In this document: positions 1,507-63,020 of the stretch, one piece after another | How positions within the stretch are numbered: position 1 is the first letter of the stretch | Layout: the number at the start of each line of letters is the position of its first letter | Assembly: GCF_006345805.1 (NCBI RefSeq) | Contig: NC_043011.1 | Location: forward strand, 64,988,464 to 65,052,463 | Origin: Octopus sinensis | Taxonomy: Eukaryota | DNA length: 64,000 bases | Direction of reading: 5' to 3' | Program-made: the position numbers and the translations under genes | The notes under the pieces: generated by a model | Told to the model about the DNA's origin: nothing | The model's input: the letters and a program-made list of their open reading frames with translations, nothing else | Database searches by the model: none

Positions 1507-1533
1507 CGGTTTTTTAACAGTAGTGGGTTTTTT
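1507..1533 (-). CDS. Six-Cys family unit A, linker microexon (KKPTTVKKP)
   Basis: ttttctttttctgttttttacag|27 nt|GTAGGT; phase 0/0; same position in the conserved intron scaffold as the microexons at 19289, 21863 and 49629. Confidence 0.7.
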
Positions 1534-2068
1534 CTGTAAAAAACAGAAAAAGAAAATGTACTTTCGGAAGTAAATCCTACAAATCCATATGAATTGTATG
1601 TCCACACATGCAGGTTAAAGTTATACATTAATTTTAACATACAAGGCTCATTATAAAGATTCCTTAATATTCACGGCATGCCCATTGAGTAATTAGATGC
1701 AGTCATCAACTGTATCAACCTATCTTAACATTGCAAACTCTATTCGATCTGGGATTGTGAAAAAATTGTAATGAATTAAATGTAATGTAAATCTCCGTTT
1801 ATTTGCAGATATCCTGAAGTTAGGCTGAAAGGTATAATAACTGCTTGTGTTTATAGAAACGAGCATTTTGTTATCAGAAGCCAGTTGCTCTTGAATATAA
1901 TTATGACTCATGATTCTCGTACGTATGAAAATATTCCAATAGTGTCGATTACAATTAATAGTACAGGCACTCTCGTTACAAGTAAAAATATTAGTTTAAA
2001 AAATTAGTTTTTTATTTACAAGAACAATGGAACACAAAAACTTAATATAGTGATAACAACTGACTTAC

Positions 2069-2152
2069 GGTACACCTGGTATTCGTTACAAACTCTGTAC
2101 TACAATGAGGAGCGACGGAAGAGCGAAAGCAGTTTGCAAACTTTCGTACATC
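2069..2152 (-). pseudogene. Six-Cys family unit A, exon 3 (MYE-FANCFRSSVAPHCSTEFVTNTRCT), 1 nt shorter than its paralog (frameshift)
   Basis: tttgcag| ... |GTAAGT; 84 nt versus 85 nt for paralog 22443-22527; three Cys align; the deletion lies in GAAAG, so it is either a real frameshift or an assembly error. Confidence 0.8.
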
Positions 2153-2460
2153 CTGCAAAGGAAATTTGAGATGAAAACTCCAGAAGTACATATATATATA
2201 TATATTATATATATATATATTATATATATATATATATATATATATAATATATATATATATATGTGTGTGTGTGTGTGTATATATATATGAATACATAGGT
2301 AGATAGATAGATGGATAGATACATACATACATACATACATATATACATACATACGCATACAACAAAAAACACACCCACACACACATATATATATATATAT
2401 GTATGTATATATATGGGTGTGTTTTTGTTGTATGCGTATGTATGTATGTATGTATCTATA

Positions 2461-3130
2461 ACGGGCATGGGACAACAATAAGCTGACCAAGACCACTAAA
2501 ATGAAGATCTACCAGGCATGTGTACTCAGCACTCTACTGTATGGAAGTGAGACCTGGACGCTATACACACGCCAAGAGCGTCGCCTAAACATCTTTCACC
2601 TGCGCTGCCTCCGAAAAATCCTTCGTATCAAATGGCAGAATCATATCCCCAACAAAGATGTCCTCAGGGAAGCAGGAATACCAAGCATGTTTGCACTCCT
2701 CACACAAAGACGTATGAGATGGCTTGGGCTTGTTAGCCGTATGAAAGATGGCAGAATCCCCAAGGACATACTCTACGGAGAGCTTGCTAGGGGTACTAGG
2801 TCTGTGGGTAGACCGATCTTACGTTACAAGGATGTTTACAAAAGGGACATGAAGGCCTGCAACATCAATATTAGCGGTTGGGAGGCAGTTGCCGGCAACC
2901 GTGGAGAATGGCGACGTACCGTAAGAGAGGGAATACAAAGGAATGACATAGAGAGAGAGAGAAGAGAAATGGAAAGACAAGAAAAGACGTCAACAAGAAA
3001 CTATGACATTACAACCAGCCAGGAACAGTCGTCGCTACATTTGCGTTACCTGCCAGAGGGAGTGTTTGTCAAGGATAGGACTACACAGCCACAGCAGGAA
3101 ATGTATCAGGACATGAAATGTAAAAGCCGG
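2461..3130 (+). mobile_element. RTE-clade LINE 3' fragment (C-terminal part of RT ORF), inserted in a (TA)n tract
   Basis: IYQACVLSTLLYGSETW...RLNIFHLRCLRKIL...RRMRWLG..RMKDGRIPKDILYGEL motif. Confidence 0.9.
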
Positions 3131-60290: not shown

Positions 60291-60347
60291 TTACGAAAAT
60301 TGTGTTTTACACACTATATTAGAAGAAACAAGAGGCAAGAAGTGAGG

Positions 60348-62112
60348 TCACTTACTCATTTCAAAAGTTTCATTTTTTTCTTCTTCTTCTTTTGTATTGT
60401 TTTTGATGAGGTGTTTGTAGAGTTTTTTCGACAGGTATCGTTGATACCCGCCTACCGCATTCGGAAATATTGTTTTCAGTATGTGGTGTTGTGCTTGTGT
60501 TATGTTTAAAATTCTGATGTGTTTCGGTGGTGTGGTGTGCGGATGATTGTTTGTCTTAAAGTCATCTTCACAGACGACCATGTTAGATTTGATGTAGTCC
60601 ATTAATTCTTTATTGTCTGTGTCTATTGCAATTAGTTGTGTGTGTGGTTTTACGGGTTCATTACTTTTTTGATTGTCTAGGGGGATGTTGTCCTGAGTTA
60701 GATATCTCCCTGATTTACTTCCTTGTTTGGTAGATTTTTTGGATCTTTTTCTTTTACCCCCTGTGGCTATTTGCCATTCCGTCGAACTTTCGTCGTCCGA
60801 CGTATCAGTATGGGGTAGAGGCAAAACATTTGCATTACTATGTATGCTTGTATAAATTGTTGATGTTTTGTGCGGTGTTTGTGTTGTTGTGGTGTTAGGA
60901 GTAGCATTTGTCTTCTCGTCACTGTTTTCTGTCTTTTTAATTGTCGTCCTGGGTGTGGGCGTGGGTCTATTTTTTGTTAATTCAACAGGTTTATTTGGTT
61001 GTGAAGTCAACGGTGATTGTGTTGGTACTGTTTTTCTTGGTGATGTTGTTGGGGTTTGTTTGCTGGTTTGTTGTTTTTCTTGGCATTGTTCTATAATTGA
61101 GTGTGTTGGTGTTGGTGTTGGCAACAAAGGGATTTTATTTGTTTTCTGATTTGTTCTTTCTTGTTTTTTCTGTACCAGATCGCACTTGGCAATCAAATGT
61201 TCGGGGCTGCCACATTTGTAGCATCTAGGCTCTTTGCCTTCTGCCATAACATATAGGCATTGCCCATTCTCCAAGTATAACTTGTCGGGTAGGCTCTCGA
61301 TAGAGGCCCCCTCAATCTGGATGGTCACCACTACTGTTTTTCCACCCCAATTGTCGTTTAGGTACACGGCTGTTTCCAAAATATTGATCTTTTTCAAGTG
61401 GTAACAGATTGCCCCTGTTATCCATTTGTTCGGCATATCGGGGGGTACATTTCTGATAGTAATTCTACTCACCCTCTGGTTTTTATAATAAGGGACCATG
61501 ATGATTTCATCATTTCCCAGAGACTCAGTAGAGTGAGCTTTTGCCACTTCCTGGTTAGGGAAGCGGACCACTACTGTGTTAAACAGGGGACCCCAGTTTA
61601 TGTACTATTTTTCTTTCATTATGTTTTTTAAACATTTCTCCACATCAGTTTTTGTAATCTGTTCATTTGGTTTTTTTGTTTTTTCTAATAATTTTATATA
61701 CAATTGTCTTATTTTCAATTTCTTGTTTTATATGTTGAGGTGTATGCAGCACTAAATCTTGTCCACGGGTTGTAAAGAGAGCTCTTGTCTCTATGAGCTC
61801 TTCATTTGTAAATGTCACAATTTCCTTCTTCTGGCGAAGAATGTCTGCGAAATTTACTGATGTTGTTGATTTTTTTGTATTAACATCTTCACTATTAGAT
61901 AGTTCATTTTTATTGTTGTTCTTGTTGTTGCTGTTGTTTTTGTCAATAGTTTTCGTTTCAGTTTTATTTTTATTATTTATGTTGGTCGTGGTAGTGGTGG
62001 TGGTGGTGGTGGAGGTGGTGGTGGTAGCAGTTGTTGTCTCGTCGTTGCTGTTGTTAGTGGTGGTGGTGGCGGTGGTGACAGGGCTGTTAACGCACGTGGT
62101 TGCAGCGTTCAT
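60348..62112 (-). pseudogene. Tx1 LINE ORF1 (gag-like CCHC knuckle), broken around 61571-61663
   Basis: CYKCGSPEHLIAKC; split into ORFs 61663-62112 and 60348-61571 near A-homopolymers. Confidence 0.85.
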
Positions 62113-62951
62113 TTCACCGAATTTTACGTTTGCATTTTCCGTGCGAACGTTCTTTTTTTTTCTATCGTTTCCAGACTAGGAAAATGTTGTTCCATAAAAG
62201 AACGCGATCAGCGTTCAACAATAAAATTCTAGACATTTTCTAATGTCGAGAATAAAATTACAGAAATGAAATGGGGTCGAAACTGCCCCTAGGGGCGAAT
62301 TCCTCCCTTGGAAAAGCACTCAAACGAAAGTTGGTTGCTTTACACACCTTATTTGCAAAAATCTACACACAAATTGGCCTATATATAGTCAAAATAAATG
62401 ATTACCTTCGGAGCTGAACTGACATCACATCCGTCAATAGATAGATAGAGAGATAGATAGATAGATATATATATATATATAGATAGATAGACAGAGAGAT
62501 AGATAGATAGATAGATAGATAGATAGATAGATAGATAGATAGATAGATAGATAGATAGATAGATAGATAGATAGATAGATAGATAGATAGATAGATAGAT
62601 AGATAGAAAAATAGATAGATAGATAGATAGATATGTAGGCAGGTAGGTAGGTAGATAGATATGATATTTCAATATATAGTTTCAGTCTTGATTGTTTGTA
62701 CGTAAAAAAATTTCACTTATTATTACCATTGACTCTATCTTGAATATTTTTGATTGATACTGAAGCCATTATATCTCCGACTGTTTTTGAAGTTACAAAT
62801 TTTAGAACGCTTGAAGCAGAGCAAGGAACAGTGTTCAGATGTTTACTTCCTTCCCCACTTCTCGTCACAGAATTCCAATACTTGACATTTGTTGAACCAA
62901 TAAGAATTTGAGAATAAGGAAAACGAATCGTTATTCCATGATAACGTTTAT

Positions 62952-63020
62952 TTAACAGTAATTTAGTAACATTACAAGGTTAACGCCAAAAAGAGGAATG
63001 GATACACTTTGAATGGTCAT
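62952..63020 (-). CDS. Six-Cys family unit D, terminal exon (MTIQSVSIPLFGVNLVMLLNYC*); rest of the gene expected beyond 64000
   Basis: gttctcttttcag|ATGACCATTCAAAG, identical to the start of the unit B terminal exon; followed by the same mariner-containing intron scaffold. Confidence 0.68.
   Translation of the reverse strand: MTIQSVSIPLFGVNLVMLLNYC

Follow-up and report, generated by a model that had tools for sequence, protein, structure and literature searches.

Neuritin (CPG15) consists of a leader, one six-cysteine helical domain and a glycosylphosphatidylinositol (GPI) signal in a precursor of about 140 aa, and neuritins are encoded by one or two conserved vertebrate genes. The N-terminal domain of human RGM (RGM-N) is a three-helix bundle with three disulfides and contacts BMP/GDF via the RG[DN] loop, a leucine and a histidine after Cys5, as described in PMC7354924; RGM is GPI-anchored, and a 2022 review gives RGM-N and RGM-C as not reported in other families (PMC10084454). 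Here we analyze a 64,000-nucleotide stretch of the Octopus sinensis genome (the window, C15:64988464-65052463, where C15 is contig NC_043011.1; the genome is 2.72 Gb, AT-rich and dense in microsatellites), encoding predicted small six-cysteine surface proteins. An initial annotation of the window proposed four gene units, A to D, and read them as a family, expanded in this lineage, of small proteins with disulfide bonds and probably a GPI anchor; such a family is supported far beyond the four units.

We conclude that the predicted window genes are real and that the cluster family is much larger than the window, which would be a slice of a multi-megabase octopus cluster for small GPI-anchored surface proteins. 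The octopus family is real, large and apparently undescribed; literature searches found no description of the family, an orthogroup listing in genome-paper supplements being possible. What appears to be new is the large octopus family, while the kind of protein, a small GPI-anchored six-cysteine helical ligand, is already known.

Gene models, family size and domain constraint

The gene plan is a short leader, at least one six-cysteine domain, a short polar linker and, in most cases, a tail of GPI type. Each domain is encoded by one exon of ~100 nt and one of ~85-89 nt, and the phase-2 intron between them follows Cys3 by two bases. For B and D the gene models are intact, with the following exons (exon coordinates of units A to D are window positions unless prefixed C15:).

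41910..41949, minus strand: unit B exon 1, 40 nt, signal peptide
26030..26129, minus strand: unit B exon 2, 100 nt, Cys1-3
22443..22527, minus strand: unit B exon 3, 85 nt, Cys4-6
21863..21889, minus strand: unit B linker exon 4, 27 nt
19706..19783, minus strand: 3' remnant of a lost tail exon between the B linker exons (DNA profile E 1.6e-5, 3' half only)
19289..19321, minus strand: unit B second linker exon, 33 nt, Ser-Ser-Ser omega-site candidate
14609..14665, minus strand: unit B tail exon, coding part, 18 aa, hydrophobic, predicted GPI-type signal
C15:65069516-65069558, minus strand: unit D exon 1, off-window
C15:65056196-65056295, minus strand: unit D exon 2, off-window
C15:65053440-65053524, minus strand: unit D exon 3, off-window
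C15:65052941-65052967, minus strand: unit D exon 4, off-window
62952..63020, minus strand: unit D tail exon, coding part, 22 aa, the sole D exon inside the window

Predicted splicing of B (41949 to 14609, minus strand) gives an intact frame of 113 aa, or 102 aa with a single linker exon, with phases 1,2,0,0 and the cysteine plan C-x7-C-x13-C-x8-C-x8-C-x9-C that had been read for this unit. An AT-rich TATA-like word is located ~60 nt upstream of B exon 1. D was completed with the four exons 0.5-17 kb to the right of the window, resulting in an intact 107-aa protein with the same cysteine gaps as B. All exons listed in the initial annotation were found at their minus-strand places with AG/GT ends, and the diverged intron scaffold common to the units was confirmed at ~64-77% identity; the phases hold for B but are not consistent in A, in which exon 3 has 84 nt vs 85 nt in B and D. 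The second first exon of A, the second linker exon of B and the lost-tail remnant are additions to that list inside the window.

The leaders are hydrophobic, with 12-14 residues and a mean hydropathy of 2.3-2.6 for A and B. A small-residue omega site, a spacer and a terminal hydrophobic stretch make up the usual GPI signal, and in each of the seven tails examined an 11-residue hydrophobic segment stops 0-5 residues short of the C-terminus, while a simple rule picks out a small-residue triplet 18-32 residues from the end as the omega candidate. The hydrophobic tails claimed for B, C and D were all positive under a simple rule, C being the weakest. The family members are probably GPI-anchored at the cell surface, as predicted from these features.

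The region surveyed comprised the window, 380 kb to its left and 580 kb to its right (1.024 Mb). An exon-2 rule (AG, 100 nt and GT, no stop, C-x7-C-x13..16-C at the end) gave 20 matches in 664 kb vs 0-1 in each of 20 shuffles. The frame-blind DNA profile detected 37 exon-2 matches in the 1.024 Mb (33 intact, 4 broken or partial), on both strands and out to both ends of the region. Genome searches with two database proteins resulted in 46 and 44 matches, with further places at C15 63.13-64.46 Mb and another cluster at 28.0-28.75 Mb of C6; exon 2 was intact in 14/14 and 9/11 of the 25 remote places inspected on C15 and C6. The total is at least 56 intact domain-opening exons on at least two chromosome-scale contigs, a count of domains and not of genes (some genes have two or more domains) that omits near-identical copies on the unplaced contigs C13508 and C13346.

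A tree of 25 aligned domains splits two subfamilies with moderate support (89/87). The window subfamily (A, B, D) has the cysteine gaps 7, 12-15, 8, 8, 9, one domain, linker exons and an exon 3 of 85-88 nt with a phase-0 end. The left subfamily has the gaps 7, 16-18, 8, 6-7, 11-12 and an exon 3 of 86-89 nt with a phase-1 end, so that its exon pairs (phase 1-2-1) can be chained into multi-domain proteins; three two-domain units with a common tail are located 69-145 kb to the left of the window. The near-identical copies on the unplaced contigs mentioned above are of left-subfamily exons, and these contigs probably represent collapsed repeats or alternative haplotypes.

The exon-2 profile search against 1.84 billion representatives (HMMER) gave 7 matches, three of which are relatives: CAI9735841.1 (four domains) and CAI9735840.1 (two domains) from O. 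vulgaris and LOC128249887 (three domains) from O. bimaculoides; three of the four other matches are low-complexity repeats on reading. LOC128249887 has six RefSeq isoforms with a shared leader-domain-tail plan and two different N-terminal leaders, which suggests transcript support in O. bimaculoides. A further O. bimaculoides relative, LOC128249851, was detected by a word search with a fragment alignment; the searches with two such alignments, the first a poor profile with exon 3 stacked onto exon 2, yielded only left-subfamily proteins (2/212 and 2/916 candidates). All four relatives are annotated only as uncharacterised or hypothetical. Exons located 70-200 kb to the left of the window are near-identical to the two O. 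vulgaris proteins, and all four relatives, unlike A, B and D, are of the C-x7-C-x16 subfamily, in which the second exon has 86-89 nt; no database protein of the A/B/D subfamily was retrieved by the word-based searches. The array had been described as hidden, which stands in part: a word-based protein database search with B exon 2 found no shared-word protein, which is weak evidence, but the neighbouring paralogues are annotated in two Octopus species.

All 25 aligned domains have the six cysteines, but they had been chosen with a cysteine rule; the intactness figure free of this bias is 33/37. Both Cys codons are used in 5/6 cysteine columns of these domains; Cys3, two bases before the donor, is TGC in 25/25, while the other five cysteines mix codons, and this invariance may reflect a splice constraint. 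In a neutral simulation six cysteines and an open frame were kept by 0/20,000 copies at 40% divergence and by 0.4% at 20% divergence; the exon differences for A-B, A-D and B-D are 39-42%. The median identity is 23% over the 300 pairs of the 25 domains. The ratio of nonsynonymous to synonymous divergence (dN/dS), finite in 20/23 pairs, is 0.58-2.02 with a median of 0.84 and exceeds 1 in 5. Exons are more diverged than their 150-nt intron flanks in 5/11 pairs (uncorrected p<0.05), and the reverse is never significant. These figures point to non-cysteine residues that change about as fast as silent sites, suggesting that the scaffold is kept and the surfaces are free or diversifying; positive selection is unproven by them. 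In the trio of units E, G and I, a first impression of exons outrunning introns was gone with wider flanks.

Comparison with RGM-N, neuritin and other proteins

Pfam RGM_N (PF06535) was the sole family listed for all four distinct database proteins, with E-values of 2.1e-9 (four repeats summed), 2e-4, 1.1 and 1.6; the scores were 37.9 bits for P0004 (four repeats summed; cut-off 24.2), 22 for P0007, 10 for P0008 and 9.5 for P0016. The family profile searched against 177,635 PDB sequences had the RGMB N-domain as the best match (E 0.49, 3/4 matches RGMB), in an alignment spanning Cys3 to Cys5. The octopus genome has its own RGM at C2:164242613 (41.4 bits; best PDB matches RGMB and RGMA), on which the 25-domain profile scored 8.6 bits, matched by 17/1000 cysteine-fixed shuffles. 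P0008, P0004 and alignment A2 had no match when searched against PDB sequences, and Pfam on 17 single exon-2 peptides gave noise only.

The cluster domain and RGM-N have in common six cysteines, a length of ~60-70 residues, a central C-x8-C-x7-C and the core pattern D-x-x-aromatic-C-x-x-hydrophobic-x-x-aromatic-x-x-C. Among the 25 domains the first central gap is x8 in 25/25 and the next is x7 in 13, x8 in 11 and x6 in 1; the core positions are hydrophobic at Cys3+3 (25/25), aromatic at Cys3+6 (21/25) and hydrophobic at Cys5+4 (25/25). The RGM N-domain had been one of the leads in the initial annotation, and the Pfam, PDB and own-RGM tests agree on it, each signal being weak. We consider common descent of the cluster domain and RGM-N fairly probable from these comparisons.

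There are also differences from RGM. The cysteine gaps are 7, 12-18, 8, 6-8, 9-12 in the family vs 4, 22, 8, 7, 21 in RGM. The family is without the RGM C-terminal domain and the GDPH auto-cleavage site, which the octopus RGM has in frame; the B, D and E models and P0004, P0007, P0008 and P0016 end in linker and tail. The RG[DN] loop and a His after Cys5 were each found in 0/25 aligned cluster domains. RGM-N is located in a single exon in the octopus RGM, whereas the cluster domain is split over two exons and, unlike RGM, stands alone or in tandem repeats in >50 copies. The cluster genes were rejected as RGMs on the missing C-terminal domain and RG[DN] loop and on the presence of the true RGM on C2. 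The octopus RGM (L063) is also without the human RG[DN] loop sequence after Cys5, and its BMP binding may differ from the human.

The B, D and E models match the neuritin plan of a leader, a single six-cysteine domain and a GPI signal. Vertebrate NRN1 may also have an intron resembling the one that follows Cys3 in the family. Neuritin is only an embedding-level lead, its cluster scoring 0.79 (under the 0.9 bar) in the ESM Atlas feature search; Pfam NRN1 (PF15056) was unlisted for any scanned protein at E up to 2-5 and gave two junk matches in the genome. The octopus cluster is large and variable, unlike the few conserved neuritin genes. The DUF19 lead (PF01579) was dropped, being absent from the families listed in the Pfam scans. 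The insect 27-kDa haemolymph protein family DUF1397 (PF07165) gave weak matches (Pfam E 0.024 for P0016; Atlas 0.77), the Pfam one under the curated cut-off (14.4 vs 25.7 bits), and DUF1397 proteins are longer. The top feature matches for both queries were two unnamed mollusc ESM Atlas clusters (129 aa/51 members and 115 aa/66 members), with scores of 0.88/0.86 for one query and 0.82/0.81 for the other, under the 0.9 bar; judged from the scores alone, they may or may not be kin to the cluster family.

Proposed function and competing explanations

We propose a birth-and-death family of GPI-anchored, RGM-N-like recognition proteins with variable binding surfaces, and give this reading a probability of roughly 0.55. 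The leader would direct the protein into the endoplasmic reticulum, three disulfides would staple an RGM-N-like three-helix bundle, the hydrophobic tail would be swapped for a GPI anchor, and an extracellular protein partner would be bound in cis or trans via the variable helical face. As it lacks any intracellular part, the protein would function through binding to this partner, through which any signal would pass; with the cysteines and core fixed and the other residues variable, the family would offer many related surfaces for binding and so make up a recognition code. The family would grow and decay by tandem duplication, and the phase 1-2-1 exon pairs of one subfamily would allow multi-domain chains. 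The binding partner is probably not BMP.

Several points weigh against this proposal. The cluster genes are read from genomic sequence alone, the omega rule is permissive, and the database protein P0016 is without a hydrophobic tail, so that some members may be secreted or mis-modelled. The only above-threshold RGM_N score sums four near-identical repeats, and that four-repeat protein also gives spurious NPR2 (1.8e-6) and cofilin (3e-4) matches; the first and last cysteine gaps are unlike RGM, and hhalign profile-profile comparison with the octopus RGM-N gave a probability of 0.3% in the wrong register. AlphaFold predicted three helices per domain, which fits the proposal, but with low confidence (predicted local distance difference test, pLDDT, 44 and 41), and on models of this quality fold searches have little power to decide either way: Foldseek found no match at E<=0.001, VIA-align had a best Z of 6.2, on generic helical repeats, and none of the 50 matches listed was an RGM chain, and the Atlas structure search found no clear match (template modelling score, TM<=0.38). 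A dN/dS near 1 also fits relaxed constraint, and the pairs are not independent; 6/11 exon-intron tests were not significant, and the dropped intron gaps favour an exon excess.

The same genes and anchor could carry a domain independent of RGM-N and neuritin, with convergence on a C-x8-C-x7/8-C helix staple. This explanation is a possible one of lower probability, consistent with the uniformly borderline similarity tests, with the different outer cysteine gaps and with the phase-2 intron after Cys3 in the family vs the single exon of the octopus RGM-N, but three different libraries put RGM-N first and the match includes the non-cysteine core positions Cys3+3, Cys3+6 and Cys5+4. The region is rich in microsatellites and retrotransposon pieces, in which chance frames in repeat or transposon-derived sequence could be mistaken for genes; the 20 rule matches vs 0-1 in shuffles, the ordered exon series with phases kept, the orthologous annotated proteins in two species and the neutral simulation leave this explanation a negligible probability. 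On the role of the proteins, pathogen defence or self/non-self recognition in skin, gill, gut or haemocytes, with variants binding foreign or allelic surfaces, is a tentative candidate. Birth-and-death evolution with fast exon change is typical of immune surface families, and the birth-and-death cluster with relics and orphan first exons, the dN/dS near or above 1 and the exon-over-intron divergence fit defence, but no immune domain or neighbour was detected among open reading frames (ORFs) of at least 300 aa in 1.02 Mb, judged by eye to be repeats or transposon pieces.

A neuronal cell-identity or neurite-growth code like neuritin or Dpr/DIP, parallel to the protocadherin expansion, would be somewhat less probable than defence. 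It draws on the neuritin-like architecture and the Atlas feature score, which is a lead only, and on the 2022 review, in which RGM itself is a guidance cue and octopus clustered protocadherins are expanded (PMC10084454). The median identity of 23% in the 25 domains would be unusual for wiring molecules keeping cognate partners, and Pfam NRN1 has no real genome match and no protein match. Fertilisation commonly involves small cysteine-rich proteins that have a GPI anchor and fast-changing exons, and the divergence pattern fits a role at the surface of sperm, oocytes or genital glands in the recognition of gametes, egg coats or mates; the >50 domain copies in several clusters would exceed the needs of species-specific pairing, and we regard this role as unlikely. 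BMP/GDF co-receptors or decoys acting exactly like RGM-N would account for the RGM-N likeness and for the hydrophobic residue at the BMP-contacting leucine position (Cys5+4, 25/25), but the RG[DN] loop and the histidine are missing in 25/25 (the octopus RGM being also without the loop sequence), and the conserved BMP ligands are a poor fit to a fast-varying family, making this role quite improbable. The fixed cysteines, hypervariable loops and exon-biased divergence recall toxin families in general. Secreted venom or salivary peptides are still more improbable, as 7/7 tails resemble membrane anchors and the accessible part of a 2026 cephalopod venom-gland preprint describes other families (10.64898/2026.02.02.703354).

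The search for cephalopod novelties usually centres on a few expanded families; this one, having exons of 27-100 nt, has for that reason been annotated just as scattered uncharacterised proteins. With its size, its variability and its probable lipid anchor, the repertoire would be a testable cell-recognition candidate in octopus nerve, skin, immune or reproductive tissue. If the RGM-N link is true, the RGM-N domain would exist outside RGMs, suggesting a common ancestor with neuritin and the unnamed mollusc proteins. In a stronger version, octopuses would have expanded a free-standing RGM-N into >50 variable GPI-anchored copies, single- and multi-domain and with isoforms and alternative first exons, that form a combinatorial surface code; this would be a large unrecognised cephalopod expansion beside the protocadherins and would unite RGM-N and neuritin in one ancient superfamily. 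We hold this version to be doubtful.

Broken units, gene debris and mobile elements

Units A and C had been included among the genes of the array. The exons of A are as follows.

11957..11993, minus strand: unit A exon 1, 37 nt, ATG start, signal peptide, phase-1 GTATGT donor
11001..11037, minus strand: unit A second first-exon copy, alternative or duplicated signal-peptide exon, GTATGT donor
7545..7644, minus strand: unit A exon 2, 100 nt, Cys1-3
2069..2152, minus strand: unit A exon 3, 84 nt, frameshifted, Cys4-6 in the other frame
1507..1533, minus strand: unit A linker exon, 27 nt
C15:64987540-64987566, minus strand: unit A second linker exon, off-window
from C15:64985962 downward, minus strand: unit A tail exon, off-window, ~2.5 kb to the left of the window

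The second first-exon copy at 11001..11037 has 84% identity to A exon 1 across 76 nt, and the tail exon, which was expected off-window, was located there. The view of A as an intact gene with the full six-cysteine spacing overlooked a frameshift in exon 3 and was not retained: this exon has one base fewer than exon 3 of B and D, ten bases into the exon and adjoining a short run of the base A, and A as assembled has three cysteines and a stop at 67 aa. In the other frame the rest of exon 3 still encodes Cys4-6 and is free of stops, despite the 39% exon difference between A and B, and because of this open remainder the deletion would be recent or an assembly error. A real recent loss and an assembly error are the two candidate readings; neither A exon 3 nor B exon 3 has a second copy in the genome assembly. 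In the shifted frame of exon 3 (2069-2152) a hydrophobic stretch lies just before the stop, and the truncated three-cysteine product could still be membrane-attached.

Two exons were detected for unit C.

49629..49655, minus strand: unit C linker exon, 27 nt, weak GTACTT donor, relic
47752..47799, minus strand: unit C tail exon, coding part, 15 aa, weaker hydrophobicity, relic or alternative D 3' end

DNA profiles find no C exons 1, 2 or 3, and homology to introns 2 and 3 of A persists on either side of the expected exon 3 site. The claim of C as a gene unit is not supported by this linker and tail; C is a linker-plus-tail relic or at most an alternative 3' end for D. To the right of the window, seven orphan first-exon copies (L027-L039, window coordinates 107-232 kb, plus strand) were detected; two are ~90% identical to the B exon 1 region, and three are followed only by a truncated exon-2 acceptor. 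We interpret the orphan first exons as debris of repeated duplication and inversion.

A mobile element was annotated between the D tail and the C relic, a long interspersed nuclear element (LINE) that is no part of the cluster genes.

56847..61604, minus strand: LINE retrotransposon, ORF1 418 aa, ORF2 1147 aa with endonuclease, reverse transcriptase and zinc finger

The LINE is apparently intact and GC-rich relative to the background, and is probably a young insertion. The last intron of B holds a broken piece of a non-long-terminal-repeat (non-LTR) retrotransposon (window 15.7-18.2 kb, minus strand) with RVT_1 and zf-RVT matches. Intronic open frames are located at window 8638-9396 and 26691-28572, both on the plus strand; a weak GIY-YIG match to the first (E 5e-4) suggests Penelope-like elements, and the Pfam scan of the 449-aa frame gave no match. 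The first intron of B includes an inverted repeat pair (32498-33649 and 34714-35513, identity 84-88%), and the sequences at window 43.0-44.3 kb and 53.7-54.9 kb resemble decayed Tc1/mariner transposons, judged by eye.

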